Source: Trypanosoma brucei (Eukaryota). From it: DNA of 64,000 nucleotides. The notes under the pieces are model-generated. The model was not told the DNA's origin and ran no database searches. It saw only the letters and a list, made by a program, of their open reading frames with translations. The position numbers and the translations under genes were made by a program. The stretch lies in contig CP000067.1 in NCBI GenBank assembly GCA_000002445.1, positions 288,001 through 352,000 of the forward strand, written 5' to 3'. Position 1 is the first letter of the stretch. Each line of letters starts with the position of its first letter. This document shows positions 2,687 through 34,446 of this stretch, piece by piece.

Positions 2687-4591
2687 TTAGTCAGCTTTTA
2701 TGGAGTTGTAAATAGTTCTCACAAACACAGCCGATGCGACAAACCCCATCGTGCCCAAGAAAACGGCAATGAACACCGAAACCTCAAAGGTGTACACCAA
2801 AAAAAGGATCACAGAAAGTGGCTGACGAATTTCCAGCGCTCCGTAGAGATACACAACACTATAAAGAAAAAAGTACACGCCGCAGCTTCCGGATGTACAA
2901 AAGCTTCCCCACCACCACTCATAATCTTCCTCAGAAAGCATGGCATACGTCACCACAACCGCAACCTCCGCACAAACAGCGGAAATGATAAAGGACACAC
3001 CAAAAAGATAGCCAACATAGAGGAAGGGTTGACCCTTCCAGAAGGAACCCAAGACGCAAATGACCTCCATAAACGCTGCAGTGAAGGAAACAATACCGCC
3101 ACCCAAGATGAACATGTAGCGCCTCCTCACGCTTTGTTGGGAAATCGCACGCGGAATACTGCCCACTTTGGTCGGCAACACAAATGCAGACGCCCTAAAC
3201 CCAGCTGATAGGCCAATAAGCGATAATGGTACGGGGACCGCAACCCAGAGAAAGAAGAGAGTAAGAAGAACCGGCAGAGAGACAGCAGTGCTCCCGTGCT
3301 TTGACCAACTGATCATGTTCCCGGCAAGGTACCCCAACAACAGGGATAATGGAACCATAGTCACAGCGGCAATGCCGTTCTTCCATGTCCTGATTTGGAA
3401 AAACACCAGCATTTTCCCCGCCACATATCCGGAGACGCAGCTTGAACAACAGAAGAATATTATCAGATTTGTCAGCAGGTTACCGCTGTGCCAGGGTTGA
3501 TACTTTCTAACGGTCGATGAAATCACCGTCAGGACCACCACAGCCACCATCTGACATCCCGAAGAAACAAGCCCCGTCAGGACGAGGGGCCTCGACGGTG
3601 CTCTAAAGACATCGCCGCGTACAAGCTTCCATCCAGACTCTTCCTGAACGTCACCACTCACAAGCATATCGTTCTGCATAAGAAGGTCTCTACGAACAAT
3701 ACGCAACAAAACGATCATAACGAGCACACCCAGGAACCCGAGGAGAAGCATAGAATTGAACAGTGCTGTCAAGTGGGCTTTCTTCCGCTGGGCCCCTCCC
3801 AGACGCCAGTAGACGTCCCACCGTGTCACAAACACACCTTCACTACTATCCTGCTCCCATGTTACTGAATACGAATACGCCACGTTGGTGGCCCCTGTAG
3901 ATGCAGGATCGGGCCACTCGTCTACGGAGGCACCGTCCGGGGGGCACCCCGTGGGGCTGTTTAGTGTTTTTGGTTTCGCGTAGAATCCCGTCAACATATA
4001 TTCCCCGTTGGGAAGGACGGCGTAAGTTATGGTAAAATGGATATGGTTGTTTATCAAACACTTGTCACCGGCAGCCCCTTCCTCCTTCAACTTTTCGTCA
4101 CCCTTTACATGTACGCCAAGCCGGTACCCGAGTCGTAACTTCTCGGTCGTTCCTTTTTCAATCCTTTCCACAAGTGGTAGGCCAGCAAGAAACATATGAC
4201 CGCGGTAACTCTGAGTAATGAGATTATCAAGGTCCTTCTTGTCACCTTCGGTGTAACTGACAATACACAGAGGCTGGCAAGTTACGTTCCTCAGGACGTT
4301 AACGGAGTACAGCGAAGGCAAAACGTGGTTCCCGAGAAGAAGCTCCCCTAAGTTCTCCTTTCCGGATCCTTCCTTCAGAACATGTGCTGCAGGTTTGCAT
4401 GCTTTCATCTTATAGAAATCGTATGGCACCACACCTTTACTGGAGGTTAGAGAGTTCACCAAAACAGGGACCTCATCGCCCTCTTTGTACCCGATGGGTG
4501 CCGTAATCTTAAAAAACGAGCTTGAAGCCTCGTTCACAGAGAACACAAACAACACCAACACAAGCCGGTAAAAGTGAAACTTGTAGCCCAT
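2687..4591 (-). CDS. Transmembrane 9 superfamily (nonaspanin / EMP70) protein
   Basis: 634 aa: N-terminal signal peptide, a large luminal domain, then nine predicted TM helices. The C-terminal end '...IYNSIKAD' is characteristic of the TM9SF family. Confidence 0.85.
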   Translation of the reverse strand: MGYKFHFYRLVLVLFVFSVNEASSSFFKITAPIGYKEGDEVPVLVNSLTSSKGVVPYDFYKMKACKPAAHVLKEGSGKENLGELLLGNHVLPSLYSVNVLRNVTCQPLCIVSYTEGDKKDLDNLITQSYRGHMFLAGLPLVERIEKGTTEKLRLGYRLGVHVKGDEKLKEEGAAGDKCLINNHIHFTITYAVLPNGEYMLTGFYAKPKTLNSPTGCPPDGASVDEWPDPASTGATNVAYSYSVTWEQDSSEGVFVTRWDVYWRLGGAQRKKAHLTALFNSMLLLGFLGVLVMIVLLRIVRRDLLMQNDMLVSGDVQEESGWKLVRGDVFRAPSRPLVLTGLVSSGCQMVAVVVLTVISSTVRKYQPWHSGNLLTNLIIFFCCSSCVSGYVAGKMLVFFQIRTWKNGIAAVTMVPLSLLLGYLAGNMISWSKHGSTAVSLPVLLTLFFLWVAVPVPLSLIGLSAGFRASAFVLPTKVGSIPRAISQQSVRRRYMFILGGGIVSFTAAFMEVICVLGSFWKGQPFLYVGYLFGVSFIISAVCAEVAVVVTYAMLSEEDYEWWWGSFCTSGSCGVYFFLYSVVYLYGALEIRQPLSVILFLVYTFEVSVFIAVFLGTMGFVASAVFVRTIYNSIKAD

Positions 4592-12196: not shown

Positions 12197-13963
12197 CTAG
12201 AGTATACCATTCTGGAGAGTTTGGAACTGATCGTACCGCCTCGTCCTCCAGTTGTCCACACTACCGACAATGAGTTCCTTAATATAAAGTGCAAAATCTC
12301 CCTCGTCCTCTAGATCCAAACGAAAGCGGGACCGCAGTTGCTGGATGGCAACTTCAGGAGAGGCCCCGAAACAAGGCAAAGTGTTGTAAGGCGTCATTAG
12401 CGAGACAAGTGCTACGATATCATCAGCTTTCTCGCGTATGGCTCTCATCCCCAAGAAGAACAATAGCTTAAAGTAATTAAATGGTGAACTTCCAACACCT
12501 CCCATTACTTCAAGGAGCTCTTGTGACAGTTTGAAAGGGGCTGATTCGAAGTTGACACCACCGGGAGATGTGACGAGCATAAAACCAAAGTCTATGTGCA
12601 CCAAACGGCCGTCTGCCCTTATCAAAATGTTCCCGTTGTGTCTATCTTTCACCTGAAGGATATAGGTAAAGATACTGTAACCAGCCATTGTCTCCACGAA
12701 ATTTCGCTGAGCCTCCCTATATCTTTGGGAACCCTTGCCACCAAAGGCCTCATTGAAGAACTGGGGAAGGTACGCCATCTGACATGACTTCTTGATTCCA
12801 TCAATGGAACAGGCACCCTCTACACACTCAATAATTCCAGAATCCACACCGACGGCAAGTGCCCTATAGGGGACAAGAGAGCATGTAAGTCCGGCATTCT
12901 TCCATATATTGTTGAAGAGGTCAACAAGTTGTAACGCCAACTCCTCTTGCCGCAAATTATCTCCACCTTTGACCACAAATGTGGCTGTACCCCAATTAGG
13001 ATGCCTCCCAAAGAATGACTTCTCGCGCAGACGAGCAGCTCGTTCCTCCGGAAGCTCTCCAAAGACCTTCCGAAACAACTTCATGTCAGGGGAAGCGGAC
13101 TTGATCGCAGTTACCTCCCCTCCTACATCTTCCCCCCTTCGGTCCAGCGACTGCTCCTCCATCAATTCATCTGATTCCGCCGAAATTTTAAACTTTCCAT
13201 TGGGAAGTCGTAACTTAGATGTAGTTGGGTCATTGACAGTTGCAGTGGAATCAACAATGACTTCGCATCGAAGGAGAAACGGCGCTCTCTCACGAGAAAA
13301 GAATACGACACTATCTTCAACAACGATGTTTACAATCCACTTTACCGGATCGTCATTACAACCCAAAGGGCATATGAGTGACTGCGACCTCAGTGATTTG
13401 TTGATTTCATCCAGCTCCTTCTTTAGCTCATGTTGTCGCCGATCTCTCTTGGTGAACGAAATTAAATGTTTACTCAAGTTGGTGATAAGATTGAGGAATG
13501 CTCTCTCATCGTTGAAAAGCTTAAGTCGCAGTTCCTTGCGCCTAATCTCTTCCTCTACCCCGTCAGTGTTGTTGGTTCGATCTGCTACACCCTTGCGGTT
13601 GATGGCAAAACTCTCGATCTTGTCGTGCACTTCCTTCACGCGCCCTCCAAGCCCAACGGCCGAAAACACGTCGCGTACCGAGTCCACTGTCCATGAGAGC
13701 CGCAACGCCAAGGTAAAAGATCGCCCCGCCAGCCAATGCATAAAACGTCGCAGGCGGTTACTTACCTCCGGACCCTTGTGCGTGATACAAGCATGAGATA
13801 TTTGAAGGAAGACCCTTTCAATGGTTGCAAGGGGGAACTCATGCAGATTTTGAACAAGAGCCATTTGCTCATCCTGAGAACCCCTCGGTAGGTACAGCAG
13901 TACCTCCAGAAGCCTGTGAAGACAAAACAAAGCATTCGACATTGCGTGGGAAAAAGGAAACAA
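12197..13963 (-). CDS. Phosphatidylinositol 4-kinase (PI4K III-beta-like)
   Basis: 588 aa; C-terminal PI3/PI4-kinase catalytic motifs 'KDRHNGNILIRADGRLVHIDFGFML' and 'GKGSQRYREAQRNFVETMAGYSIFTYILQ'. Size and domain order fit PI4KIII-beta. Confidence 0.85.
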   Translation of the reverse strand: MFPFSHAMSNALFCLHRLLEVLLYLPRGSQDEQMALVQNLHEFPLATIERVFLQISHACITHKGPEVSNRLRRFMHWLAGRSFTLALRLSWTVDSVRDVFSAVGLGGRVKEVHDKIESFAINRKGVADRTNNTDGVEEEIRRKELRLKLFNDERAFLNLITNLSKHLISFTKRDRRQHELKKELDEINKSLRSQSLICPLGCNDDPVKWIVNIVVEDSVVFFSRERAPFLLRCEVIVDSTATVNDPTTSKLRLPNGKFKISAESDELMEEQSLDRRGEDVGGEVTAIKSASPDMKLFRKVFGELPEERAARLREKSFFGRHPNWGTATFVVKGGDNLRQEELALQLVDLFNNIWKNAGLTCSLVPYRALAVGVDSGIIECVEGACSIDGIKKSCQMAYLPQFFNEAFGGKGSQRYREAQRNFVETMAGYSIFTYILQVKDRHNGNILIRADGRLVHIDFGFMLVTSPGGVNFESAPFKLSQELLEVMGGVGSSPFNYFKLLFFLGMRAIREKADDIVALVSLMTPYNTLPCFGASPEVAIQQLRSRFRLDLEDEGDFALYIKELIVGSVDNWRTRRYDQFQTLQNGIL

Positions 13964-18803: not shown

Positions 18804-21530
18804 TCACGACCATTTTTTAAGGAAAGGGTTGACGAGCACGTCCGGGTCGTCTGAAGAATCCCTCTTCCCCTCGACGACAGGAGGTATATCGCCACCCCAA
18901 ACGTGTCTCGTGGGCTGCGGAGAACCAGCTTGGTGACGCTGCGTGAAGTTCAGTGGCGCTGCGGGATACCCCGCGCTTGCTGCCGTTGGTGGTTTTGGAT
19001 GTGCTAACGAAGTCTTACTGGGCCCCATGCTTAGCTGTTTCACGGCAGAAGTTGGAACGGGCGCAAGATTCACCACAGGGGGCAGTGGGGCCGACACGCC
19101 TGCTGCAGCACCCGGAAATAGTTCCGCGGGACCACTCTGTGGTCCACCTTTAATAGGGTGGACTTCAGCCGCCTGATCTCCATGATGCTGCAGGTTCGTT
19201 GAAACCCTTCCAGCACATTGGAATTGCACTTCATTCGCTGATACCCTTTCCGTTTTAAAGTGTCTCCTTTGCTTCCAGCATTGTTGCAAAAATCCAGACG
19301 CGCTGACAGCAACAATACTAATAACTGTGAAAAAAAGTGTGCTCATATTTATCGAAGACGTTTCGCCTCCGTAAGTTCCCACATCACCACCAGCGAACGG
19401 GTTAGCATCGAGGGTTTGAGACTGCCCTGGAGCAGGTGTATTGCCGTGACTATCACCTACAGTGGTATTATCACTGGCGGTACAGCGGCAACCACCAACC
19501 GAAAAATCAGACTTATCTCGACCCCCTTGAACTGCTTCGTCGGTTAATCCAACAGTGTCCACGATTTTCGCCACAACCTGCCTAAGCTTCATAACACCTT
19601 CACGGCACTCGGGCACCAATTGATTCTGAACAACGCAGCGCCCCCTCATATTATACACATCGTCACCAATCAGGCTGGCGAGTGCGCTCGCGTCGTCAGC
19701 CAACTGCTTCAAAAGCACAACAAAATCCGTTCCATCCTCTCTGGTCTCTTCTAAAGAGACCTTGCCATCCCTCTCATAACGTTTCTGCAACTCAGTTTCA
19801 TCATCATCAGGTTGCTGTGGCTCAGCTTCATTATCATCAGGTTGCTGTGGCTCAGCTTCATTATCATCAGGTTGCTGTGGCTCAGTTTCATTATCATCAG
19901 GTTGCTGTGGCTCAGTTTCCTTATCATCAGGTTGCTGTGGCTCAGCTTCATTATCATCAGGTTGCTGTGCCTCAGTTTCCTTATCATCAGGTTGCTGTGC
20001 CTCAGTTTCATTATCATCAGGTTGCTGTGGTTCAGTTTCCTTATCATCAGGTTGCTGTGCCTCAGTTTCCTTATCATCAGGTTGCTGTGCCTCAGTTTCC
20101 TTGTCATCAGGTTGCTGTGCCTCAGTTTCCTTATCATCAGGTTGCTGTGGTTCAGTTTCCTTATCATCAGGTTGCTGTGCCTCAGTTTCCTTATCATCAG
20201 GTTGCTGTGCCTCAGTTTCCTTGTCATCAGGTTGCTGTGCCTCAGTTTCCTTATCATCAGGTTGCTGTGCCTCAGTTTCATTATCATCAGGTTGCTGTGG
20301 TTCAGTTTCCTTATCATCAGGTTGCTGTGCCTCAGTTTCCTTATCATCAGGTTGCTGTGCCTCAGTTTCCTTGTCATCAGGTTGCTGTGCCTCAGTTTCC
20401 TTATCATCAGGTTGCTGTGCCTCAGTTTCATTATCATCAGGTTGCTGTGCCTCAGTTTCATTATCATCAGGTTGCTGTGGCTCAGTTTCCTTATCATCAG
20501 GTTGCTGTGCCTCAGTTTCATTATCATCAGGTTGCTGTGCCTCAGTTTCATTATCATCAGGTTGCTGTGCCTCAGTTTCATTATCATCAGGTTGCTGTGC
20601 CTCAGTTTCCTTATCATCAGGTTGCTGTGCCTCAGTTTCCTTATCATCAGGTTGCTGTGGCTCAGTTTCCTTGTCATCAGGTTGCTGTGCCTCAGTTTCA
20701 TTATCATCAGGTTGCTGTGCCTCAGTTTCATTATCATCAGGTTGCTGTGCCTCAGTTTCCTTATCATCAGGTTGCTGTGCCTCAGTTTCCTTGTCATCAG
20801 GTTGCTGTGCCTCAGTTTCCTTGTCATCAGGTTGCTGTGCCTCAGTTTCATTGTCATCAGGTTGCTGTGGTTCACTTTCATTATCATCAGGTTGCTGTGC
20901 CTCAGTTTCCTTATCATCAGGTTGCTGTGCCTCAGTTTCCTTATCATCAGGTTGCTGTGGTTCACTTTCATTATCATCAGGTTGCTGTGCCTCAGTTTCC
21001 TTGTCATCAGGTTGCTGTGCCTCAGTTTCATTGTCATCAGGTTGCTGTGGTTCACTTTCATTATCATCAGGTTGCTGTGCCTCAGTTTCCTTATCATCAG
21101 GTTGCTGTGCCTCAGTTTCCTTATCATCAGGTTGCTGTGGTTCACTTTCATTATCATCAGGTTGCTGTGCCTCAGTTTCCTTGTCATCTGGCGGCTTTAC
21201 ACGAGCTGATCCATTGGTGGTGTGTGCTGCATCCCTCTCCTCTTCGTTGTGGTTTTTGGCTCTCATCACTTGGCTGCCGCGGCCCACGTTGTTCTCGTCC
21301 GCCTCCTGACGTCCTTGGGCGCCAGTCTTGAGCTGAGTATCGGTTCTGTGGAGGCCGCCATCGCCTTCGACAGGAAACCGAGGTGCTCTGTTGCTTCTGC
21401 GCACTGCTTTCAATGTCCGTGCCTCGCCCACTTTACCTGTGTTAGCGTGTGCTATACAAGTAGAACACCAGCCTGCAACGCATGACACAACGGTTAACAG
21501 AAGTATCTTTGCGGTGTGGAGATGACGCAT
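18804..21530 (-). CDS. Type-I membrane protein with about 47 tandem acidic decapeptide repeats (PDD[K/N]ETE[A/P]QQ)
   Basis: 908 aa: N-terminal signal peptide 'MRHLHTAKILLLTVVSCVAGWCSTCIAHA', a long 10-aa repeat array, a cysteine-containing unique domain, a TM helix 'LFFTVISIVAVSASGFL', and a Pro-rich cytoplasmic tail. The repeat holds all three frames open on both strands, which explains the overlapping ORFs in the track. Confidence 0.8.
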   Translation of the reverse strand: MRHLHTAKILLLTVVSCVAGWCSTCIAHANTGKVGEARTLKAVRRSNRAPRFPVEGDGGLHRTDTQLKTGAQGRQEADENNVGRGSQVMRAKNHNEEERDAAHTTNGSARVKPPDDKETEAQQPDDNESEPQQPDDKETEAQQPDDKETEAQQPDDNESEPQQPDDNETEAQQPDDKETEAQQPDDNESEPQQPDDKETEAQQPDDKETEAQQPDDNESEPQQPDDNETEAQQPDDKETEAQQPDDKETEAQQPDDKETEAQQPDDNETEAQQPDDNETEAQQPDDKETEPQQPDDKETEAQQPDDKETEAQQPDDNETEAQQPDDNETEAQQPDDNETEAQQPDDKETEPQQPDDNETEAQQPDDNETEAQQPDDKETEAQQPDDKETEAQQPDDKETEAQQPDDKETEPQQPDDNETEAQQPDDKETEAQQPDDKETEAQQPDDKETEAQQPDDKETEPQQPDDKETEAQQPDDKETEAQQPDDKETEAQQPDDKETEPQQPDDNETEAQQPDDKETEAQQPDDNEAEPQQPDDKETEPQQPDDNETEPQQPDDNEAEPQQPDDNEAEPQQPDDDETELQKRYERDGKVSLEETREDGTDFVVLLKQLADDASALASLIGDDVYNMRGRCVVQNQLVPECREGVMKLRQVVAKIVDTVGLTDEAVQGGRDKSDFSVGGCRCTASDNTTVGDSHGNTPAPGQSQTLDANPFAGGDVGTYGGETSSINMSTLFFTVISIVAVSASGFLQQCWKQRRHFKTERVSANEVQFQCAGRVSTNLQHHGDQAAEVHPIKGGPQSGPAELFPGAAAGVSAPLPPVVNLAPVPTSAVKQLSMGPSKTSLAHPKPPTAASAGYPAAPLNFTQRHQAGSPQPTRHVWGGDIPPVVEGKRDSSDDPDVLVNPFLKKWS
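19791..21196 (-). repeat. Tandem array of about 47 copies of a 30-bp coding repeat
   Basis: Unit 'ctcagtttccttatcatcaggttgctgtgc' (+ strand), with variant positions giving K/N and A/P alternations. The array is in-frame, with no spacers or leader, so it is coding and not CRISPR. Confidence 0.95.
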
Positions 21531-21800
21531 CGTTAGGCCACCTTGGGAGTAGCTGATATTGAAGAAAGCACACCCCTTCAGATGATGAACTAAACAACAG
21601 GCTCAACTGTATGAGGTAGGTATTGAAATCCTGGGAAAATGTTGGGCGGGACCCCAACCACCTTACAAAGTGAAGGAGGTAGGAAAAGAAAATAACATGA
21701 TGACTCGGCAAACCACAAAATCTCTGACGCAGCAGTTAAATCAAGCAATAAAAAAGTGTTTCAACCATTGGTACCAAAAACCGGGTCCCTTACACAAATA

Positions 21801-22820
21801 TTAATCCCTACGTAGAGAAAATTCCATGGTGTCACCGGGAACAGTATCTATCCTAACCGGCTCCACACCCATGGTATCTATACTGGTACCAATCCGCATC
21901 ATTGTTCCACCGATGCGTTGCGGCTTCACGGGCGGGAGGTTTCTCAAAGATGGAGGTACCACTGGTGGCGCGTCGTATCCCACTTCTTCGAGTGACAAGC
22001 AAGGCCCCCTGGACCCAGCGCCACCAAGGAGGTCTCGCACGTCGCCTCTGGGATGAGGTACTACTATTTCAATAATATCAAGAGGCTTCATCTCCTTCTT
22101 CACTTCCTTTGCCATAACTTCATGCTTTATTTTCCACACACCTGACCCCTCCAGTGCCGCCTCGTCACGAATTTCCTCCGTGGTTTTTAGAGGTGCTGGG
22201 ATCGACCGAAGAATGTCGTCAGCAGCGGCTTTGGCTATATTAAGATCCTTCGCCTCGCTTTTAAGAAGAATAACCACGTGCTTCATGTTCCTTTCGGATG
22301 CAATATAGAGAGGACTTTTCCCATCTATGTCACAAACTTCAGTCTTCGCGTCCGCCCGAAGCAGGCGGTACACGACCTCGTGAAATCCCGCTTTAGCTGC
22401 AACGAACAGTGGAGTTTCTTTCCTACTGTTACGGGCATTAATATCACCTCCTTTTGCTAATATGATCTCAATGAGAGCAGCGTCACCGATGCGGGAAGCC
22501 AAATGCAGGACAGTCTCTCCGCCGCCGCCATTTACCACATTAGGATTCGCACCCCTTTCCAGCAGCAGCTGCGCAACATCCCTCTTTCCGTTAAAGCACG
22601 CTATGTACAGCGGGGTTTCAAGATCTGAACCCTTTAAATCTGTTTGCGCCCCCAGCTGCAGAATCTCCTTGACGGTGCTAACACCTACCCCCTTCTTCAT
22701 GCATGCGTAGTAGAGTGGCGTGTATCCGTCGGAGTTCGTAGTATTTACGTTGCCACACGACAAGGTGCGACGCAGTGTACCATGGTCCTGGCGGTCAATT
22801 GCATCAAAGGCGGCTTCCAT
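21801..22820 (-). CDS. Ankyrin-repeat protein
   Basis: 339 aa with several ANK units ('GYTPLYYACMKKG', 'ETPLYIACFNGKRDVAQLLLERGANPN', 'ETVLHLASRIGDAALIEIILAKGGDINARN', 'ETPLFVAAKAGFHEVV', 'KSPLYIASERNMKHVVILL'). Confidence 0.9.
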   Translation of the reverse strand: MEAAFDAIDRQDHGTLRRTLSCGNVNTTNSDGYTPLYYACMKKGVGVSTVKEILQLGAQTDLKGSDLETPLYIACFNGKRDVAQLLLERGANPNVVNGGGGETVLHLASRIGDAALIEIILAKGGDINARNSRKETPLFVAAKAGFHEVVYRLLRADAKTEVCDIDGKSPLYIASERNMKHVVILLKSEAKDLNIAKAAADDILRSIPAPLKTTEEIRDEAALEGSGVWKIKHEVMAKEVKKEMKPLDIIEIVVPHPRGDVRDLLGGAGSRGPCLSLEEVGYDAPPVVPPSLRNLPPVKPQRIGGTMMRIGTSIDTMGVEPVRIDTVPGDTMEFSLRRD

Positions 22821-23026
22821 CTATAAGTTTAGTCGCGTTTTTACCTAACAACAGACGGGAAAGGTATAGACATGCGTGTCAGTGCGCTTGCCACACTGTA
22901 CGAATAAACGGAGCCAGAAACTCTCGGGCAGCTGGAAGCTAACAGGTGGCGCAAAAACATATTTATTCGCAACTCAATTAACAGCACATTCAACACGAAA
23001 GGCCCTCATACCCAAGAGTAAAATTG

Positions 23027-24118
23027 CTACACTTCGTCCTCAACGACACAGTGCTCCAGTGAGTAGGGTTGTACATTGCAGTTTCCACCGCACGTGTATA
23101 CCAACACGCTCCCAAAATGAAGAGAATGATCCTTCTCCTCTTTTCCCTTAGTCAAAAAATAAATGATTGGGGACGTGAGCTGTAGTTCGTACCGTCTTTC
23201 ATTCGAGCAACGGGGGCATCTCGGGATAACTATCGGAGCTGGGGAAGAGCGCAGCGGCTTTTGGCCGGGCCCCCATCGGACACACTGAGAAGGAACCCTA
23301 CCTATTCGGTCCACATACTTCCTCAGAAGTTTTTCCGCCAAAGGTTCATCTTCATCCTCGACCACGGTTGTTTCCACAGCATCTTCGCCGTACGTCTGTT
23401 GCGCCTTGAGCAACTGATCTGGGACAGTGCCGTAGCATAGCTTCGGTTTGGGTGGTTCTTCAAATATATTGAGCACGAAACACGGATAGCAAAAACCCTC
23501 AACAGGAACTTTTGTCCCGTGGGGCACAAGAACCGAAGAGACATCAGTGGATTGAGTTGGCGAGCCCACCTTACATTCATCCGCCATCGTCGTACAGGTT
23601 AGGTTTGTAATGCATACTTCATTGGGACCCTCGTCCACGTATTTAGGATCATCATCACCCCAGTCACCATCTTCTACAAATGTAATGCCCTCATCTTCCC
23701 CACCGCCAACAACAGGGGCAGGTGAAGACTGGACATAAGATGGGTTGAAGTTCTGTGAACGGACTGCAAAGCAGAAACTACCTTTTCCTTCGCTGCAGGA
23801 AGAGCAAATAAGCACGTACACTATACGGTCGTACACATCCAGGGGTGCATATATTTGTGTCAGCAGTGATACCCACCGGGAACTCCTACATTTAGGACAG
23901 TTGAAAATGCTATAGGTTGGTGCCTCTCGAAACAAAACAGCTGAACCACCAATCCTTGACGTGAACGGTGAGGAAAGTTCACTTCCATCCGCCTCTGTTG
24001 GTGTACCAAGCCAGACAACTTCCTTCTTTGCCATCCTAACTTTCGTTGCGCGTACGTACAATCGTTCCAACAAGTGTAAAACAAAAACAACCCGCGTGGA
24101 CTCAAGCAGAGAAAACAA
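23027..24118 (-). CDS. PDCD2-like protein (programmed cell death protein 2 C-terminal domain)
   Basis: C-terminal 'CPRCSNERRYELQL...FGSVLVYTCGGNC' matches the PDCD2_C signature. The true start is probably the internal Met at 'MAKKEVVWLG' (about 24034), not the first ATG of the ORF. Confidence 0.7.
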   Translation of the reverse strand: MFSLLESTRVVFVLHLLERLYVRATKVRMAKKEVVWLGTPTEADGSELSSPFTSRIGGSAVLFREAPTYSIFNCPKCRSSRWVSLLTQIYAPLDVYDRIVYVLICSSCSEGKGSFCFAVRSQNFNPSYVQSSPAPVVGGGEDEGITFVEDGDWGDDDPKYVDEGPNEVCITNLTCTTMADECKVGSPTQSTDVSSVLVPHGTKVPVEGFCYPCFVLNIFEEPPKPKLCYGTVPDQLLKAQQTYGEDAVETTVVEDEDEPLAEKLLRKYVDRIGRVPSQCVRWGPGQKPLRSSPAPIVIPRCPRCSNERRYELQLTSPIIYFLTKGKEEKDHSLHFGSVLVYTCGGNCNVQPYSLEHCVVEDEV

Positions 24119-24214
24119 AAGTTTAGTTGAGCTAGCAAATTAAAAATGGTTTTGTTCACTAAAAGAATAACCGCGTGATATAGCTTTAACAACATAAGCA
24201 CTAATATTTCCTCC

Positions 24215-24826
24215 CTAAAAAAATTCGAGCAGCGATGCTGTCAGCCACCCGCTGCCGTATGCTTCTCTCAGGTAATACGACGAATTATAGGGGCACTGGG
24301 CAACTACATCACCAATTGTGCATGTCCTAAGAGGAAACAACTCCCTTTGCGGAGAAGCGCCATCACCGGTGGTTACTATGCCATTGCTAATCGACGTTTC
24401 ATGAAACTCAGCGCAAATCCTTTCTGTACATTTCCTAAACACAAGAAGTGGATTCCTGACCCCCCGTCGACGATCCGACCTAGCACCAAAGCACTTCGAA
24501 TCCAATTCGTTCATGAGTAGTTGAAGTTTTTCGGTATGATTCGCCTGAACGAACCCGATATCTAGATCAGCGTCCCATAGTAGCAGCCTCCCCAGACGCG
24601 CGGACCCGAGGAGCGTACCATTCTGCAACCAGCAGTCTACGCTATTTGACCTGAACACTTGTAGTGAGCAGTTAAGGACGTTCTGAAACGCTGCCTCTCT
24701 GTCATAGTAAACATTGTAGCAAAAATCTACGGTCACACTTATTACATATACTAACAACACGAACACAATTGCACGTACCCATGATACTCCAATTCCTCCC
24801 CCTTCCTTTCGATGAACATCCACCAT
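24215..24826 (-). CDS. LicD-family (fukutin/FKRP-like) phosphotransferase, type-II membrane topology
   Basis: 203 aa: N-terminal TM anchor, then 'DCWLQNGTLLGSARLGRLLLWDADLDIGF', the LicD nucleotidyl/phosphotransferase signature (GTLLG...WD.D.DI). Confidence 0.65.
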   Translation of the reverse strand: MVDVHRKEGGGIGVSWVRAIVFVLLVYVISVTVDFCYNVYYDREAAFQNVLNCSLQVFRSNSVDCWLQNGTLLGSARLGRLLLWDADLDIGFVQANHTEKLQLLMNELDSKCFGARSDRRRGVRNPLLVFRKCTERICAEFHETSISNGIVTTGDGASPQRELFPLRTCTIGDVVAQCPYNSSYYLREAYGSGWLTASLLEFF

Positions 24827-26057
24827 TTGATTTGGTGGCGAGTGATATCAGATCTTGACGTCGAGCTAATGAGACTCAGTACGAAAAAAGTGCACGCAAC
24901 CTTTGTTTTCGTGGCAATGACAAAAGGTTCAAGTACCTTTAATGTGCGTAAAGAAGTTTTTTATAAAAAACTAAATTCATTTTTTGAAGCCCCACCAATC
25001 GGAACCCATCCACTCCTTCAATACTAACCACAGTGAAGTACTGGGATGTTATCGTGCAAAATAAAAAGGGTTGTGCATACGTGCTTATGCAACATAATTG
25101 ATTTCGTTCCACCCCCGTGTCAGATTTTCCTGGTTAGCACCTCCAACGTTTTGCTGGTACCTTTAAACGACAAATCTGTTTAGACAACATAGGAAAAGGC
25201 AAAGGAGTGAAAAGAAAACGTTAAAGGTGCCGCTGAAGGTTTGCACCACCTCAAAAAAACAAATAAATAAATAAAACGACGGTGGGGTAGAGAAGCGACT
25301 GCTGGTGGCGTAAACGGTGGATGCTGCAACCTCCGAAAAATGGCATATCTCTCTCAGGTCGTGGAGAGCAAACCATTCAACTAGAATGGCGAAAAGGAAG
25401 CACGGCAGACAAGTGCGCTTCTTCAAATCGCACGCACGCACGCACCATCACAGTGAAAAGGGGTATATGACACCTTTAGTTGGCTTCATGAACCAATGTA
25501 CAAATATTAGTAATACCATGTCCGAAAAATACAAGTCGCATTGCGCAATCAAACCGACGACGGGTTTGAGAAAGATGTGCCTTCAAGTAGTTGGTAAAAG
25601 GAGGGAAAGTTCGTACACACAAGCGAATGTGAGAGAGCCGCAATAATGGTTTCCCCGCTCTTCTGTTATTACACCGCCTGAATGAGACATTGTCCCTTCC
25701 CATCACCCTCAACAAGTTGATTACACCCATGGCACCAAATCTCCGCGTTGTGGAAACACGCGGCACGCCCATAATAAGCAGGCAAACTCACTACCACCCC
25801 ACACACATTTACGTCATTGGGAAGTTCTTGGCGCTCAACTTGGCTTGGGTGACAGATACAGCATTTTTTCTCTAGTTTCAGCGGCATAAAAATGGTTAGC
25901 TGCGGTTGAGCAGGACGTCAACAATCGTTAAATTCGGTGAATGGATCCTCCCCACCACCCCACCACCAAAAGGGAAAAAATGCAATCACGCGCAAACACG
26001 GCAAATCATAAAAACGCACTGAGGGGCCGCTTGATCATTAGGTAACCACACATTTGC

Positions 26058-26059
<2 letters not shown>

Positions 26060-26088
<29 letters not shown>
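26060..26088. repeat. (AC)14 microsatellite
   Basis: Perfect dinucleotide run. Confidence 0.95.
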
Positions 26089-29000
26089 CAAAATGGCACC
26101 ATCCTTAAAGTGAGGCGGAAGGGTAAGGGACATTTTCACCTTCCCATCAATCACTTAAAGCGACATAAGTGGCAGTAAGTGTGGCAACTTCAAGGGAAAA
26201 GGCAGTCCAAGTTGACAAGAGAAGGCAACATTATCCCAGCGGATATTCAACAAAATGTGAGATGCTGGGTTCTATCTAGTAAGCAGAACGGCATCTTACC
26301 CCTTCCTTTGAAGGGTGAACCCACATAATTAAACAAAGAGAAAAAGAAAATATCTGAACAAAAAACCAACGTACTCACTTATAAGTGTATATTGTAGCTT
26401 GAATGAAGACAGTGAGGCGCAGCACTCGATAAAGAATAAAATTTTGTTGTCAACCGTTCGCCGCAGTGAAAGATCACATAAAGGAAATACAGTGCGGGAA
26501 TCACCGCAAAACTTTCCAGAGTCCGTCTTCATCCTTCAAATCAACCTCCATAAAGACGACGAGTTGGAACAGCAAATTCCGAGCCGCTACAACCTCCAGC
26601 CGACGTAGTGCAAAACTGTGAAGCTCTCACATATTTAGCCGACGATCCAATCCTGTTTTTTTCTCTTTTCACACACTGCTGCATTCAAAAGTAGAAAGCG
26701 AGCAGAACAATTTGAACTTAAAAAACGGGGAAGCTAGGCTGTGACATATATCCCACAGCTGTGATCACCCAACTCCCAGCGCTGGGGATAAAACTGGAAA
26801 GTTAATCAGGGAAACAAACGAATGCATCAGACGCTCCTACAGGAAAAAAAAAGATCTGACTCATTCTAATTGACCCAGAAGCGCAAAAGGTTATAGTATC
26901 GCTGCTGTGAAGAGTAGCTTCATCACCACAACCGTCGCGTGGCATCAGCAACCCCTAACACCACATTACAGCAACTGTTACACGGTTTTTTAAAAAAAAA
27001 TCGTACCGTTAAGGGTACCAGCCTAAACAAAGACGTAAAAGCGTCCCTAATAGCATCGATTATTGAAAATGCTGAGTGAAAAATGTGCCTCACGTACCAA
27101 AGCAGTGCGTAAGCTCTTCTTATGCACAACTCAACCCAAGCCTTTCGGGGTCAAGGAAGTTTTTTTCTTGGATGGCCGTATGTACAGCCCAGCACTCGAG
27201 GGAAGCGCAGTCCGCGCAAAGGTAGTAAGGCATTGGGGTGGTGAACCCTCAAAAATGAAATTCCAGCGCATCACTACGAACGCATAGTCAAGCGTTCGGA
27301 ACCCTTGTACAAAACCAAACATCAAAAAGAGTTGCTGATGCAAATGGCGTACAAGTGAGGGCGCTCACAGAAGTTGTTAGCGCCTGCACCACTGTCACCC
27401 CCTCCCCTTCCCATCTCTCCATATGTCGGGTCAGTTATGTGCTTACCGATGGGCAAAACGGTTGAATAATAAGCAACAAACCGTAGTAACCTTCATTTTG
27501 ACTTCAACACAAAAACATTCTTGGCTTTCGCAGATATCCCCGCTCCAAGAGGATTGAAAGGACCGCACATACAACTGAACCTCCAAACAGCCAAAAGGGG
27601 GAAAGTCACCGGCACAACCTAACATCCACCACGCAAGAAGGATACAGAAGTGCCACGTCACAAAAATCAGTACATTCACTACACTAATACCTTCGCTTCG
27701 GACTGGTTACAACCAGTTCGCCGCGAGATAGGGCGCTACTGGATGAAGCTCGCAACCCCTTCACACCTCGCCCACAAAAGTCCAGGATACTTTACAGCAC
27801 ATTGTATGGTCCCCTTCAACGGCGACGACCACGACTGCATTGCACAATTTTGACGGATGGTTTTAAAAAAACAAGCGGAAGAAACAGGGGAATGTGCACA
27901 TACGATCCAACAAAGAACGTAGTAGCAGAATCAGGCTCACGAATTTCATCCTTGCAGCATCTTGCCGCTCCGGAAACCATATAAACAGTAACTTGAAAAC
28001 ACATTTCCACTACTACGCATACACAGAAAATAATGTGTGGTGCGCCGCGGAAGAACGTGCACGCCGACACATAGCAGATGCATCAATAAAGCAAACTAAG
28101 ACCAAATAACACAGGTTCAAACGGTTACATTGGTCGCATCACAAAGTAGCACTGGTAGCCGGTACAAATGCTAACAATGCCCAAACTTCTCAACGAATCA
28201 ACAAGTTATGTCCCTTCGTTGTTGAAAGAATCACATGATCATAAACACACAAGTACGTTTCCACAACCTACCTTCTCCCAGTCCACAAGACAAATAACGG
28301 ACTGAACAGTCCACTATGATGTCCCTTATTACTTTTTTTTCTTTAAAAAAATGACAAAGAACAGTTCTTCTGTCATAGTGTTGCTCCCAGAAAGTCCCAT
28401 TGAACACATGGGGTGGTAGAACACACGTAACCTCATTACCACTCGTGGTGTGGTACCTACATTGTACCCAATATGCAGATCGGTTATCAGAATCAGTTAA
28501 TCACACCAACACTGCAATTCTTTCCGCGAGTACCGACACATGTTATTCGAAGTGACGGCGTGATGTCAGCGACACGTGGCGACGGCGGTGCCGTAACCCC
28601 AGCGCCTGCTTCATGGCCAACATAAATAAGTTCCTGGTAATAGCTGGTTAAGACCTATTGCACCAACTATGTCGAATTACCGCCCAAGACTTAAAAACCG
28701 CGGCAGCTGAAGGAGGGAATGACACAGAATGGGTCAGGAAGCGGGAGAGAAATGATGATATTCACCTCCCCTACTTCTATTTGCAAAGCTTTAAAAAAAA
28801 CTCTACTATTCTCCATCCACCTCATAGCTGAGGTTGAGACCCTCAAATGAATTTCCACAGAAACACACACACACACCCGAAACCTTCTGTAACCCACCGC
28901 ACCAAACCATCATTGGGATCTCCGCTTCCGACTCTTTGCATGGATCAAGTGCAGGAAGATACATTACCAAGGAAAGAACACAAACGTAACTAGCACTACA

Positions 29001-29913
29001 AAAAAAAAAACTAACCTAATGAGGAGGGGCACAATGGAAGAAAATGCCCTGAAAGGACCGTGACACTTCGCCAGCACCATGGAAATCAAGCACGATTCTT
29101 CCAATCGCTTATAAAGGCACGAGTTTGACCACTCGCGTTTAACCTGGAATAGCAGAAGCCAGCAATCACTGTGTTCCAGATGGGGACCGTTATCCAGGCA
29201 TCGCAAGGCGGACCCGCTGCAACAGATACTTCTGTAAGACTAGGAAATATTCAAACAGAGAAATAGGTGAGGAAAACTGTATTTGTTCGAGGTGAAAAAA
29301 AACTCCCAGGAGCATCTGCCAACAAACACACGGGTGTGGAGTTCGGTGTAATCGCCCCCTGATGGTGGCGGGGGCGGCGTACCCTTAGAGGGGCTAAGTT
29401 CACGCGCAAGATGGGAACGCAGCCAAATATGCTTAAAAGCAGGTACAGTCACTCGCTTCAATGGGGGTGATAGCCTCGGACGGCGCGGTAGAACCCGAGT
29501 GGACACACTTCTGAGGCCACACCATCCTCACCACGTTACATCCGAATGCGGTGCTGGAACTTGCTTCGCCCGCGAATTTTATTGAAGGCACAGTGTCTTT
29601 CCAACGGGGAAAGAGGTTACCTCTGATGAGAGGATGTGTGAAATCACCGCCACACTCTATCTCCAAACGGCATTGGGGAAAAATTGGAAAGGTGGCGGAA
29701 ATAACTGCAGGGCCCTCTCCCGAAAAGGAAGAAAAAAGTCGCCATTAGCGCTTCCTACGACAAAATGTGAAAGCTTTGTACATCTTTATGAAGGATTGGA
29801 AAGAAAAACGAGGGGAAGTATTTTAGAACACACTCCGTCACTGACGAAAGCGGAAACCCCAGGGCGAGGCCGACACCTCGTCACTCACCCTTCCCACTAG
29901 ATGCGGAAAAAGC

Positions 29914-29985
29914 GGGCCGTTGCGGGAATCGAACCCGCGGCCTCCTGTACCCGAAACAGGAATCATGCCACTAGACCAAACGGCC
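29914..29985 (-). tRNA. tRNA-Pro (anticodon CGG)
   Basis: Reverse complement 'GGCCGTTTGGTCTAGTGG...CCTGT-TTCGGGT-ACAGG...GGGTTCGATTCCCGC-AACGGCC' gives a 72-nt cloverleaf with a 7-bp acceptor stem, a T-loop 'GTTCGATTCC', and anticodon loop 'uuCGGgu'. Confidence 0.85.
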
Positions 29986-30075
29986 ACCGCGTCAGGGGCG
30001 ATAATTAATATACTTCTGGGTGCCACCTAAATTTCCACGTTCAGTCGTTGTTGACATTTGTTCAGGTGAGGCGAT

Positions 30076-30235
30076 GCCGGCCACCTCAACGTGGTGCCAT
30101 GGTCCAGTACCCCGTATCATCGGGGGAAGCCAAGAGCCAGCAGCATTCCTTTCATGGGGAACAATGCTTTGCTTTTGCAACGGCACCGAGCAGCACTGAG
30201 ATGAGCCGCGCCGTGATGGAGAACATTTTTTTTTT
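30076..30235 (+). ncRNA. Candidate Pol III small RNA, copy A (about 155 nt; unassigned; 5' end has an SRP-RNA/Alu-domain-like flavour)
   Basis: It starts about 90 bp downstream of the divergent tRNA-Pro (29985), which is the tRNA-dependent Pol III arrangement typical of trypanosomatid U6/7SL/U3-type genes. It ends in T10 (30226-30235). It carries a conserved 10/11-bp hairpin ('agcagc(g/a)ttcc-tttcatgg-ggaaca(c/a)tgct'). The 5' 100 nt are almost identical to copy B. Confidence 0.55.
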
Positions 30236-31467
30236 GTAGAGCCCTGGGCACGTGTTCTCGTGCTATCGGCAGTTTGTTCTATGAATCACTGATTTGTTTC
30301 CGTTGGACTGATAAGTGTTCATGAGGCAATTTTCACCTTGCAGTGGCAGCTGTAGTCTCTCGACTGAGTGAAAGATGTGTGTGAGTTTGTCGTCCGAAGC
30401 GAAAAGGTGATGTAGTTGGCGGCGCTTAATGAAATAGCTGCGGTGCTGTTGACTGTTCCTCATGCGTGGAACGGGCGTAAAGCGGCATTTAAGAGGGTGC
30501 TGCATGTTTGATGTGTTTTCACTTCCGGAATAATTCGGTGGTGGCGTAGACGTACTACTATGTTTGTTGCAGCGGCCGTAGCGCTGAGTTATTGCACCGG
30601 TCAAGAAGTAGAACTAGAGCACGGGGAAAATGAAAAACCAGTAGTTTTGTGCTCAGGCGTATACCCAAAGTGTTCCGTATGTGTTGAGTAGGATAAACGG
30701 AGAAAAAAATGGATGAGAGCGTGGCGTTCACCAGAGTGGGTGCAATTAGAGGGTCCCCGAACTAACGGTTAAAAAATATATCACTTTTCCAGGTTGTCAC
30801 AGGAGTTTTGTCACATGAGCCCGCTATGTGCAGCCCCTAAGCATCAAGGGAAGAATCTTTGTAAGTATAGGAACACCGATCGTAATAAATGGGCGCAGAG
30901 ACTGCCGGTGTTGTTGAGTTCTAGATTAAGGTAAACACAAGTTTTTAATTCCGAGCACGAAGTGTGTTGTAATTGAAGGGTATGTATCATTTATAGTGTG
31001 TGCTACTGGGTGTTTCTCACGCACAAGAAATACTTTGTTGATACCACAAAATCAAGAATACTGTAGTCTTTTTCCTCACGGAATGTAGAAAAATCGAAGG
31101 TGAATGCAAGGTCGTCACTTTAGCGTATACAATGGTTTCATCTCATTTTTTATCTTTCTTTTACTGACCTGGAAATAACGCTTTTGTTACCCCGGAGTCA
31201 GATGATAGGTGGGCCTTTCAGGGAGACGGGGAACAAATACAATGCAAGTGGAGATGACAAGGGTGTGGTAGATGAATGATTCGCAATATGGGGGGAACTT
31301 GCGGTAAATTTACTATCTCTTGTACAGGTGTTGGTTGTATGATCGTACTTAGTATTGTGGAAGTGTTTTTTTTTCACCATTGTTTTGTACGTGTTGTATC
31401 TGTTGTTGTTGGGTGGTAAAGTGTTTATATTTTGTTTTTTGTGTGTTTGGGTAGGGAATTGTAGGTA

Positions 31468-32463
31468 ATGAAAGTCAAGATTATAGAATGGTTGGTCTTC
31501 CTATCTTTTGTTATTTATACCGAAGGGGCCGAAGACGAAGGTCGCTGCAGACTGGTAGATGATCATTCTTTTAAAAATTTACATGAATCCGTATGCTATC
31601 TCAGCTGCCTTTCGGATGCACTAAACAAATTATACACCAATGGAGAGAGGAAGTTGCTTGTGAATGAGGAAGTATATGCGAACGCATCTCGTATATTGGA
31701 TGATATGGAAGGGAGAGCAGGTGAAAGTGTCAAATATTTGAGTGTTATTAGTGATGCAATGGGAGGGAAACATGATAAATTGGAAAAACTTATATCTTAT
31801 GGAAATACAATGGGAGACCTGGTGGCTAAGGTAGGTGGATTATTTGCTGATGTTAATGAAAGTGTGAGGGTGGTGAGAGAGCTGTTGCCCACTGCCCTCA
31901 TGGAAGCAAATAGATACTATACGGCCAGTGCAGAAATTACAAGGACTGTGTGGGATGATGTTAAGGCGGTAGAGGGCAGCGACGAGGAAGCTGCAAAGTG
32001 TAAAGGAGAAAACATTGGTGTTACAGAGTTCCCGACGACTTGTGGCAACCACACATGTCCTTTGAGAGATAATGTAAGTGACGATACTCTTCAAAAGTAT
32101 AAGGACGGGTGCCTTGAAATAAATGTGCTGAAGACTCCCGGATATGTAAGTGAATGCTTGAACCGACCAAGGAACAAATTGTACATGGATGGTGCGGTAA
32201 ATAATTTGAGCGACACAATAAAGTGGAGAGGGGAGAGTCGAGACGGAGCCATTTTTTTCCAGCTGACGGTCCAAGTACAAAATGTCTTTGGTCCCCTTAT
32301 CGGACCTTTTTCCGCCGGGCAGCCCCCTCCCGTACTTCTTGAAGTAATGTCAAATATCACCTCTCTTCACTCCCACTTTAACAAGGTGCATAACAACTTC
32401 ACGTCGCTGCTATTCGACATTGATGTTGCTGGTAATGTTACCACCGCTAATTCTTCCATCTGA
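31468..32463 (+). CDS. Putative secreted/surface glycoprotein (signal peptide; helical N-terminal part; Cys-rich; about 9 N-glycosylation sequons)
   Basis: 331 aa, and the only long ORF in the AT-rich island. Hydrophobic N-terminal signal 'MKVKIIEWLVFLSFVIYTEG'. A T/G-rich tract with an AG lies just upstream (31370-31467), a plausible + strand trans-splice acceptor. It runs opposite to the surrounding transcription unit. No family assignment. Confidence 0.4.
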   Translation: MKVKIIEWLVFLSFVIYTEGAEDEGRCRLVDDHSFKNLHESVCYLSCLSDALNKLYTNGERKLLVNEEVYANASRILDDMEGRAGESVKYLSVISDAMGGKHDKLEKLISYGNTMGDLVAKVGGLFADVNESVRVVRELLPTALMEANRYYTASAEITRTVWDDVKAVEGSDEEAAKCKGENIGVTEFPTTCGNHTCPLRDNVSDDTLQKYKDGCLEINVLKTPGYVSECLNRPRNKLYMDGAVNNLSDTIKWRGESRDGAIFFQLTVQVQNVFGPLIGPFSAGQPPPVLLEVMSNITSLHSHFNKVHNNFTSLLFDIDVAGNVTTANSSI

Positions 32464-34446
32464 CAAATATGTTCATATACATTTCCTCCTACCCAATAAT
32501 GTGTTTGCATACATGCTTTTATGCGCGTTCGCACGCGTCCATGTTCTTATTTTTTTTCAGACATGTTGTGTTTCCACGGAAAAAAGTCCAAACCTTGTGA
32601 AGTGGTAATGTTATAACGTCTCAAATACTTGTATTTACAGTGTGCGTGTACAAAACAAGTTCTTTCCTGTAGCTTATCTTTCAGAGCTTGTTTGTTATTA
32701 TAAGAATTGCTAAAGTTTGTAAGGTATGAAATTGAAGCATTGGTAGTGGTAGTGTCTCTTGGCTGCCGCGTTACGATGTTTCCTCTGGGGTCATAGCGTG
32801 GATGTGTTTCCCGCGTGGGATCATACCATGAGGAAGCATCGTAAACATATGGGTAACACCTTCTTCTACGTTTCCGGTACCATCCCTAACTGTTTTCGAG
32901 GAACGCCGATGCAAGAAGTAGCAGTTTTTAGCTGCCCTGTCTAAATGTGTTGAAAGCGATGCATTGGCTAAATGACTGTGGACGGTGGGTTGGAGAACGA
33001 TGAACATGGTTGGTAAAGGGGGCTTGGAGTGCCTCCTGAGCGAGCTGACAAGTCTGGATATTTCGCTAAGTGTATCGATAGAATCCAAGACAGTTTTCGG
33101 GGAGAGGTATATCTAGTCTCTTTTCCAAGCTAGAAGAATTTGAAAATGAAAAAGACAATTACTACGCGTACAAATGTACATAAAAGGAACAGTCGTTCGA
33201 TTCTTCCTGTTTCTTTCCTCAACGTAAAAGCAATGGATCTTATTGACGTCACACTTATGTGGGGAAATCATTATTCAGGTGCTGCCGTTGGTATCTCTCA
33301 GGTATGTTCGTGGAAGTTGGAAGAACGATGCAGTAGAAAAGAGTGGTTTATAACGGCATTGCATTGTGAGCGATGTAGCCAAGTTTTGTACTTAAAAGGC
33401 GATGTGAGGTATCACCCATACCTCCGTAGCAGCCTTTTATGCTAGTTTACCGCATTTGAACGTGGTCTCATAGCTGTGGCGGAAGGGAGGGCAATCTGTT
33501 GGCACAAATGGGAAAATGTTGCCATTCTCTTGCTAATATTCTGTTTTCCCATTAAGCTCATTCATGAAGGCGAGACCCACGTCGTATTTATTATTATGTC
33601 CGAAACGAAGCATAAGACTAATTTTTTATCTATCATTCAAATCTTCCACGCACCAAGAGCTGGCAATGGTTCTACCCCATTTTTTTTTTTGTTGTTGTGG
33701 CCCAAGCCTTGAAAGCCTTTTCGAAATCACACCGTGCAGGAGGAAACCCTTCATTTCATCCACCACTATTTTCGTTTTGAGCTGGGTGAGTTCCACTTTA
33801 AGCGTCAAATACAGGAGGCAACTTTGTCATAATCTTCTGCCGTTGCTGCGCCGTTTCGCGTAAAGTTACGGCAGGATTTCCCTTTGTTTTCTTAATGCTA
33901 CCATGCAAGATTGAAACATTATGTTTAATCGTAAGTGAAAAGACGTCAAACTTATGATCCGCAAGGCAAATTTCACTGTGCGCCAGTCTGTTAATATTGA
34001 CTATACAAGAAACACTCGTTAGAACCATAGGCGTAAGTACAGTATTAATGTAACAACTAAGAGCTATTAATAGCACCCAGAGCCCTCGGAAAGATTGAGG
34101 TCAGAAACCTATCCGCCGAAAAAAACACTCCGCATCCCAAAGCAATGTAAAAAAAAAAAAAAACATTTTCCGTATTCGTTTTTTTTTCCAGAGCATTCCA
34201 TTTTAGGCATGTTTCGCGGTCATTTTGTCTCGCATGCGACTCCGAACGGCCTCACGTCACCTCCTCAAGGATAAGTTGTCTAATTGGCGGTGGTTACGTA
34301 TTTTAGTTTCGCCTCTTCTCGCCACTCAGAACAAGCGATACTTGAAAGTGTGGGATGCCAAACAGTAGATGACAACCAATGGCATCCGTAGCGTCCTTCA
34401 GTATTCGGCGTTGGAGAGTTCCACTCTCCCATGCCCCTGTGGTTAT

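Follow-up and report, generated by a model that had tools for sequence, protein, structure and literature searches.

In the 64-kb stretch of Trypanosoma brucei brucei TREU927 chromosome 4 analyzed here (Tb927_04_v5.1:288001-352000; hereafter "the window", in which all positions without another reference are given), we found what is very probably a core-chromosome ESAG island, in which one intact ESAG1 gene (Tb927.4.1200) is oriented opposite to the surrounding polycistron and lies between two retroposon fragments that bear the Pr77 hallmark. The segment is present in two of the four assemblies compared and absent in the other two, and its junction maps to a 17-nt block (CCCTGGGCACGTGTTCT) that is identical in both fragments. 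These results are mainly a correction of the initial annotation of this DNA, as the apparent pair of small-RNA genes corresponds to retroposon 5′ fragments around an annotated ESAG1 copy. New here are the precise position of the junction, the assignment of the flanks to Pr77, the distribution over four assemblies, and the comparison with T. cruzi.

Identity and setting of the ESAG1 gene

The island (30271-34444) has a G+C content of 0.427, compared to 0.484 in the window overall. Among all stretches of 4,174 bp, just 0.17% are equally low in G+C, with the minimum at approximately position 30201, which bears out the AT-rich island described initially. The GC skew of the island is positive (+0.14, rising to +0.28 upstream of the gene), while that of the remaining window is negative; such positive skew is the composition expected of a + strand transcription unit. 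A second low-G+C stretch was found at 40001-43000 (0.42-0.44 in 1-kb windows), spanning Tb927.4.1220, Tb927.4.1230, and their spacers. Thus, a G+C content near 0.42 at the 1-kb scale is not peculiar to the island.

Tb927.4.1200 (31468-32463, + strand) is the sole + strand open reading frame (ORF) of at least 200 amino acids (aa) in the 64 kb that is not overlapped by a longer minus-strand ORF. All other ORFs of this size are either on the minus strand or overlapped in this way. The product has 331 aa, with a hydrophobic, signal-like N-terminus (MKVKIIEWLVFLSFVIYTEG), eight cysteines, and nine N-x-S/T sequons, and these counts are exactly those claimed in the initial annotation. The family assignment made there, to an ESAG-type protein, was also borne out. 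The Pfam family ESAG1 (PF03238) matched residues 98-330 over its entire profile (positions 1-227 of 227) with a score of 382.1 bits (curated cut-off, 27 bits; E = 1.1e-114), and the product is 100% identical to XP_844270.1, which is annotated in TREU927 as "ESAG protein, putative." In published tables, the gene is listed as ESAG1 at Tb927_04_v5.1:319468-320463 on the + strand (PMC9241505, Table S4).

The gene is a regular member of its family, which is very diverse. In an alignment of 35 sequences, all 40 family-invariant columns are kept, including C43, C47, C178, C192, and C197, and the length of 331 aa falls within the 323-334 aa of its relatives. The nearest paralogue is 66-67% identical. 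We ruled out that this copy is an unusually divergent outlier, as its nearest-neighbor identity of 0.67 is close to the family median of 0.69. The best local match shifts among paralogues along the length of the product, which suggests mosaic relationships among ESAG1 members. Downstream of the stop codon, positions 32464-33073 (+ strand) have 66-77% identity to the flanks of other ESAG1 loci; blastn alignments of five such loci (L004, L011, L012, L013, and L014) run 70-600 bp beyond the stop codon. The 3′ flank belongs to the duplicated ESAG1 unit and probably represents a 3′ untranslated region.

Tb927.4.1200 is chromosome-internal (at 319 kb of chromosome 4), near housekeeping genes that include those for PEX1, RuvBL1, a PDCD2-like protein, and an ankyrin protein, and is not in a telomeric VSG expression site. 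It resembles the ESAG1 copies of telomeric bloodstream and metacyclic expression sites in family (PF03238), in length (approximately 325-330 aa in those copies), in its cysteines, and in the 40 invariant residues. However, the telomeric copies are driven by RNA polymerase (Pol) I and differ from this gene in chromosomal location. ESAG1 is reported to have no homologue outside T. brucei (PMC3605285). Of the surface or secreted ESAG-like protein proposed initially, the ESAG part stood, whereas the surface part is doubtful because tagged ESAG1 was not localized to the cell surface (PMC4587319). A sequence search of the PDB with the product yielded no meaningful match, and an AlphaFold2 model based on the 35-sequence alignment was unusable for inspecting the fold (predicted local distance difference test, pLDDT, 38; predicted template modeling score, pTM, 0.22).

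Pr77-bearing fragments at both ends of the island

The island is bracketed by direct repeats (30067-30270 and 34438-34642) that are approximately 82-84% identical and 4,371-4,372 bp apart. We compared these repeats with the Pr77 hallmark using the 77-nt T. cruzi L1Tc oligonucleotide (R77) printed in the methods of PMC1874656. This query matched copy A at 30076-30110 (33/35 positions, E = 2e-10) and copy B at 34447-34481 (34/35, E = 1e-12) and nowhere else in the window, and a global alignment covers the whole hallmark of approximately 77 nt. The hallmark has CCACC at positions 16-20 and the downstream promoter element (DPE) motif CGTG at +25 to +28 (PMC4748587). In copy A, CCACC (30081-30085) and CGTG (30090-30093) are in register with this numbering; in copy B, CCACC (34452-34456) and CGTG (34461-34464) are displaced by a 2-nt insertion. 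Retroposon 5′ fragment A (30070-30275, + strand) follows the hallmark from its position 5, with the first four or so nucleotides missing or mutated, and fragment B (34435-34647, + strand) has a complete CCCTG 5′ end at 34435-34439.

In L1Tc of T. cruzi, Pr77 serves both as an internal promoter for Pol II and as a hepatitis delta virus (HDV)-like ribozyme (PMC1874656; PMC4748587; PMC4035085; PMC3820030), and Pr77-bearing retroposons were reported to accumulate at strand-switch regions (PMC4748587). These promoter and ribozyme activities are those of the T. cruzi element. The HDV-like models of Rfam did not match the repeats, although Rfam may not hold a model of the L1Tc ribozyme (L1TcRz). Both repeats are similar to the Pr77-bearing ingi, RIME, DIRE, and SIDER elements in opening with the conserved 5′ signature that includes CCACC and CGTG, and differ from full elements in that they comprise approximately 210-230 nt of the 5′ end and have no reverse transcriptase or endonuclease ORF; neither the short island ORFs nor the neighboring Tb927.4.1210 matched any Pfam family. 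Similarity among the repeat copies ends after approximately 210-233 nt. Given this short common part and the lack of retroposon ORFs, the repeats are 5′ fragments or short degenerate elements.

Related copies were found at other ESAG1 loci. In contig QSBY01000018.1 (L011) of the IVM-t1 assembly, two inverted copies of approximately 230 bp (1101-1332, + strand, and 12435-12663, - strand) surround another ESAG1 gene (P0002), and an OVI contig with yet another ESAG1 gene (L004) ends in a partial repeat copy. The body of copy B belongs to the same family as these copies (hereafter, the B-family): it is 91% identical to the upstream L011 copy over 191 nt in a global alignment (94.5% across the 182 nt matched by BLAST) and 88% identical to the downstream one (89% by BLAST). 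A T-run is a feature of the whole family, occurring as TTTTTCATTT in B-type copies and as T9-T10, i.e., homogenized, in A-type copies; in copy A it is a T10 run at 30226-30235. The two L011 copies are located at -6.7 kb and +3.5 kb of P0002, and at least three further similar places were reported by the look-up. In T. congolense IL3000, a weak Pr77-like match (30/40; CAEQ01001081.1, L015, positions 36-75) precedes the LicD-like gene by 3.7 kb and has the relative orientation of copy A.

Presence/absence polymorphism and the junction

The same locus was obtained from three other assemblies by exact-protein look-ups of the neighboring genes, with the LicD-like gene (Tb927.4.1190 in TREU927) also used for synteny. 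A segment of 4,372 bp (30259-34630, + strand), equal to the island and one repeat equivalent, is present in TREU927 and T. equiperdum OVI, whereas T. b. gambiense DAL972 and T. b. equiperdum IVM-t1 both lack it. The comparison of synteny that the initial annotation had proposed thus revealed a clean absence in two Trypanozoon genomes with the junction inside the repeat, which agrees with an insertion-type cassette between direct repeats. The local duplication also considered there did not hold up, as the sequence between the repeats has no similarity to the rest of the window and the island is hence not a local tandem duplication.

At the empty sites of IVM-t1 (CM010675.1, L001) and DAL972 (FN554967.1, L005), BLAST alignments extend from window positions 25756 and 20733, respectively, to 30270 and then continue directly from 34445, with a 196-bp overlap that represents one copy of the repeat. 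The flanks share 98% identity with TREU927, and the junctions are free of Ns. In both genomes, this copy has A-type sequence, T-run included, up to the end of the 17-nt block (30242-30258 and 34614-34630, + strand), and then continues as the B-side flank. This switch inside the block indicates that the event was a homologous crossover in it, by which 4,372 bp were gained or lost.

The occupied site of OVI is represented by two contigs. CZPT02001859.1 (L006) covers 20881-31688 of the window at 99.3% identity, followed by fragmented ESAG1 pieces, and CZPT02000618.1 (L002) begins in the ORF at 32054 and is approximately 100% identical over the stretch that starts at the stop codon, spans copy B, and reaches into the right flank. 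Outside of the coding sequence, the island is 99-100% identical in OVI. At this locus, the 3′ half of ESAG1 occurs in the OVI assembly in two versions (the reverse complement of L002 1-400, corresponding to 32054-32453 of the window, and L006 10822-12198). One is 96-100% identical to TREU927, and the other is 64-81% identical until it turns to approximately 100% exactly at the stop codon. This divergent 3′ half could be the result of allelic gene conversion by a paralogue, or a scaffolding artifact.

Gain or loss of the island

We moderately favor gain of the island over its loss, a direction that we infer from two observations. The first concerns the short tails (17 nt) that follow the block. 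The tail of copy B (34631-34647) matches the L011 tails at 9/17 positions despite the 88-91% identity of the body, whereas the tail of copy A (30259-30275) matches them at 14/17 although its body is approximately 80% identical. At 94% identity, no more than nine matches in 17 positions would be expected with a probability of approximately 2e-6. The tail of copy B represents native chromosome-4 flank. This discordance between bodies and tails makes both TREU927 copies look like reciprocal recombinants, as expected if a donor with a B-family fragment had crossed over once with a resident fragment of the A type.

The interval between tRNA-Pro(CGG) and tRNA-Thr(CGT) also differs among genomes, with 262 bp in T. 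cruzi, 3,600 bp in the genomes with the empty site, and 7,972 bp in TREU927, and we count this stepwise growth in favor of gain. In T. cruzi (L016 3553-4113 and L017 2012-2573), tRNA-Asn, tRNA-Thr(CGT), and tRNA-Pro(CGG) are tightly clustered at the syntenic locus, upstream of the LicD-like, PDCD2-like, and ankyrin genes. In T. brucei, tRNA-Thr and tRNA-Pro are parted by the U6 gene, Tb927.4.1210, and the retroposon fragment or fragments, together with the ESAG1 island in TREU927.

Under the mechanism that we propose, a resident A-type retroposon fragment beside tRNA-Pro would have met a circular or ectopic donor bearing a B-family fragment and ESAG1. A circular donor could have arisen by excision from an ESAG1 locus with fragments of this kind on both sides. 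A single crossover in the 17-nt block would then have integrated the donor into the resident fragment, and the resulting two-fragment state would still be segregating among Trypanozoon lineages. Once in place, ESAG1 could be transcribed as a short + strand unit in a gap of the minus-strand polycistron.

Several points weigh against this account. The direction is not proven, as the four genomes amount to one event either way and there is no usable outgroup for the island; the T. congolense contig (L015) has no tRNA-Pro in the 3.8 kb available before it ends and is too short for this purpose. The tail argument consists of 17 nt and two B-family copies from a single locus. In OVI, copy A (L006 approximately 2760-3046, compared with 30070-30160 of the window) has B-like and unique substitutions in its 5′ half and an A-type 3′ half, which suggests patchy conversion between the retroposon fragments, and by such conversion copy B could have been remodeled after an old in situ arrangement. 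Among six other ESAG1 loci that we compared, no donor was found for 30276-31457 or 33074-34434. These loci share with the island the coding sequence and up to 600 bp of 3′ flank, along with the repeats in two of the six, and three of them have no Pr77 fragment within 8 kb. Concerning the fragments themselves, neither a poly(A) tail nor a target-site duplication was seen, with no systematic search made for either, and the assignment by sequence extends to the ingi/L1Tc clade and not to a subfamily (RIME/ingi, DIRE, or SIDER2). Lastly, the expression and chromatin evidence discussed below comes from published tables (PMC9241505) and not from data of our own.

The rival that survives best is loss, which we consider possible but rather unlikely. 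In this scenario, the state with two fragments and ESAG1 is ancestral in T. brucei, and pop-out recombination removed the island in T. b. gambiense and IVM-t1. A crossover in the 17-nt block would produce precisely the empty site observed, in which an A body is followed by the B-side flank. The repeats have the same orientation, and indels caused by ingi/RIME recombination are documented (Jackson et al., 2010; PMC2854126). Moreover, the 17% divergence between copies A and B is old relative to the 1-2% divergence of the flanks between subspecies. However, the tail matches of the two copies to the B-family form the pattern expected if the two-copy state is the recombinant one. Identical stretches of 26 and 22 nt between A and B exceed the 17-nt block, so a deletion crossover in the block is possible but not favored, and the two tRNAs of T. 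cruzi have no such material between them. For these reasons, gain remains our preferred direction.

Transcription and chromatin context

Bdf3 is a bromodomain factor that published work takes as a marker of transcription start regions, and its sites were mapped by CUT&RUN (PMC9241505). Two of these sites fall near the island (PMC9241505, Table S4; window offset 288000). One (26439-26839; Tb927_04:314439-314839) is in a 5-kb gene-free stretch between tRNA-Pro and Tb927.4.1190, and the other (37861-38261; Tb927_04:325861-326261) is on the U6/tRNA cluster. The same table places Tb927.4.1200 no more than 5 kb from the first site and labels it "downregulated_PF." The break in the minus-strand polycistron is thus associated with tRNA genes and adjoins published Bdf3 sites, which accords with the initial suggestion of a tRNA-linked start or stop of transcription. 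A gap that is punctuated by Pol III genes and lies between stretches of Bdf3-marked chromatin would allow ESAG1 to be transcribed as a short + strand unit. Immediately before the ORF, the + strand is G/T-rich, with AG dinucleotides directly 5′ of the ATG. From composition and the published tables, Tb927.4.1200 most likely forms a short + strand Pol II unit of its own, with a trans-spliced transcript that is enriched in the bloodstream form.

The promoter itself is a more speculative matter. Pr77 of copy A points to the ORF in the same orientation from 1.4 kb upstream. From this geometry, it might act both as the Pol II promoter of ESAG1 and as the recombination handle, or else tRNA-Pro might drive a Pol III RNA of approximately 150 nt that ends at the T10 run, yet we consider either role improbable. 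If the promoter role were true, one retroposon fragment would serve as the handle for the recombination that moves the cassette and would also provide a family gene inside a foreign polycistron with a sequence-specific Pol II promoter.

It is also unlikely that the ORF is a silent relic, i.e., an untranscribed or untranslated ESAG1 copy in a transcription gap, with the island having no function. The gene is on the "wrong" strand and between Pol III genes, and the island is dispensable because two genomes lack it. In addition, no function is known for the family, whose tagged member did not reach the surface (PMC4587319), and an identical protein was found in no other assembly of the collection. 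On the other hand, every family-invariant residue is kept in an intact ORF, upstream of which the + strand has the composition of a coding strand, and a T/G-rich tract with AG dinucleotides directly precedes the ATG. The transcript is also listed as differentially expressed, being down in procyclic forms (PMC9241505), and the non-coding parts of the island are as highly conserved in OVI as reported above. A transcribed one-gene unit is therefore the reading that we retain.

Small-RNA reading of the repeats

In the initial annotation, the repeats were regarded as two small-RNA copies. On this view, they would represent a duplicated Pol III small-RNA gene that has the divergent tRNA-Pro as its promoter, and the island would be a local tandem duplication or an insertion. 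Several features of copy A are consistent with this reading. tRNA-Pro(CGG) (29914-29985, - strand; ARAGORN; Rfam tRNA, 58.5 bits) is divergent from fragment A, with 84 bp between its 5′ end and the start of the fragment, and Pol III small nuclear RNA (snRNA) genes of trypanosomes use a divergent companion tRNA (Nakaar et al., 1994, as cited in PMC3273796). A genuine pair of this type, U6 and tRNA-Thr (99 bp apart), is located 7.5 kb away in the window, and copy A is similar to it in the nearby divergent tRNA and the trailing T10 run. The predicted fold is also moderately stable (-58 kcal/mol).

Nevertheless, we judge the small-RNA reading very improbable. The repeats match the Pr77 hallmark strongly (E = 2e-10 and 1e-12) and are multi-copy retroposon 5′ ends, and the T-run that could pass for a terminator is a family feature that also occurs in the B-family. 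Every functional Pol III copy would be expected to have a divergent tRNA approximately 95-100 bp upstream, whereas copy A alone has one; no tRNA lies near copy B or near the copies in L011 and L004. Searches of Rfam found no family for the repeats at gathering thresholds (whole window), at E ≤5 (29-39 kb), or at E ≤10 (30050-30250). Among specific candidates, we rejected vault RNA (TBsRNA-10), as the published forward primer is missing from the window even with three mismatches allowed. A structured RNA was likewise rejected, since the minimum free energy z-scores of -1.9 and -1.75 against shuffled sequences are not significant. MRP, U-snRNA, and 7SL candidates found no support either, and the paper on tRNA organization has no snRNA beside tRNA-Pro(CGG).

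A mis-assembly at the repeat in DAL972, IVM-t1, or TREU927 is hardly credible as the source of the presence/absence pattern: although DAL972 was ordered against the TREU927 reference and the OVI assembly is broken within ESAG1, two independent assemblies have the same gap-free junction, a reference-guided assembly would tend to retain the island, two OVI contigs reach into the island independently, one from each side, and the island is unique sequence and hence not collapsible.

Relation to known VSG/ESAG islands

In the accessible text of Jackson et al. (2010; PMC2854126), transposable elements, through ingi/RIME recombination, and VSG/ESAG "islands" are said to account for most indels between strain 927 and T. 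b. gambiense, and 6 of the 17 islands are unique to one subspecies. The locus described here resembles these islands in having a non-telomeric ESAG gene opposite in strand to its neighbors, in its presence or absence among subspecies, and in an origin related to transposable-element recombination. We found no essential difference from the islands as described in that text, which does not name the locus itself. As the locus fits the class of core-chromosome islands in every respect tested and the gene is annotated, we regard it as an already known kind of feature. An ESAG-bearing insertion at a RIME position, described in the same text, is comparable in that one subspecies has the ESAG segment and the other has the retroposon. 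Compared with that case, the Tb927.4.1200 cassette is smaller, has a single gene and the opposite subspecies polarity, and has a junction resolved to 17 nt.

This locus provides a base-level view of how an island may be attached, by a crossover in a 17-nt block of a Pr77-bearing fragment, at a site that corresponds to an ancestral tRNA-Pro/tRNA-Thr cluster that has since expanded. The natural pair of alleles with and without the island could be used for studying one-gene transcription on the opposite strand and Pr77 promoter activity in T. brucei.

Neighboring features

Downstream of the island, a Pol III cluster (37763-38181) contains the U6 snRNA (37763-37858, - strand), tRNA-Thr(CGT) (37958-38030, + strand), and tRNA-Tyr(GTA) (38097-38181, - strand), all supported by Rfam and ARAGORN. 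Tb927.4.1210 (35947-36501, - strand; gene ID from PMC9241505, Table S4), a hypothetical gene of 184 aa, lies between the island and this cluster and is called in the annotations of IVM-t1, OVI, and DAL972. Located between Pol III and retroposon features, it may not be a genuine protein-coding gene. On the other side of the island, the LicD-like gene Tb927.4.1190 is at 24215-24826 (PMC9241505, Table S4).

Tb927.4.1220 (40133-40915, - strand; PMC9241505, Table S4) encodes a leucine-rich repeat protein. A homologue search with this protein found no match at E ≤ 1e-10, which is likely due to a word-index limit for repeat proteins. An identical protein is present in the IVM-t1 assembly, and OVI contigs have a 260-aa gene at the syntenic position. 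Tb927.4.1160, a 908-aa ORF (18804-21530, - strand), holds a 30-bp tandem array (19791-21188; 46.6 copies, 94% match). DAL972 aligns to this array at many 30-bp offsets, and the copy number may thus differ among subspecies.

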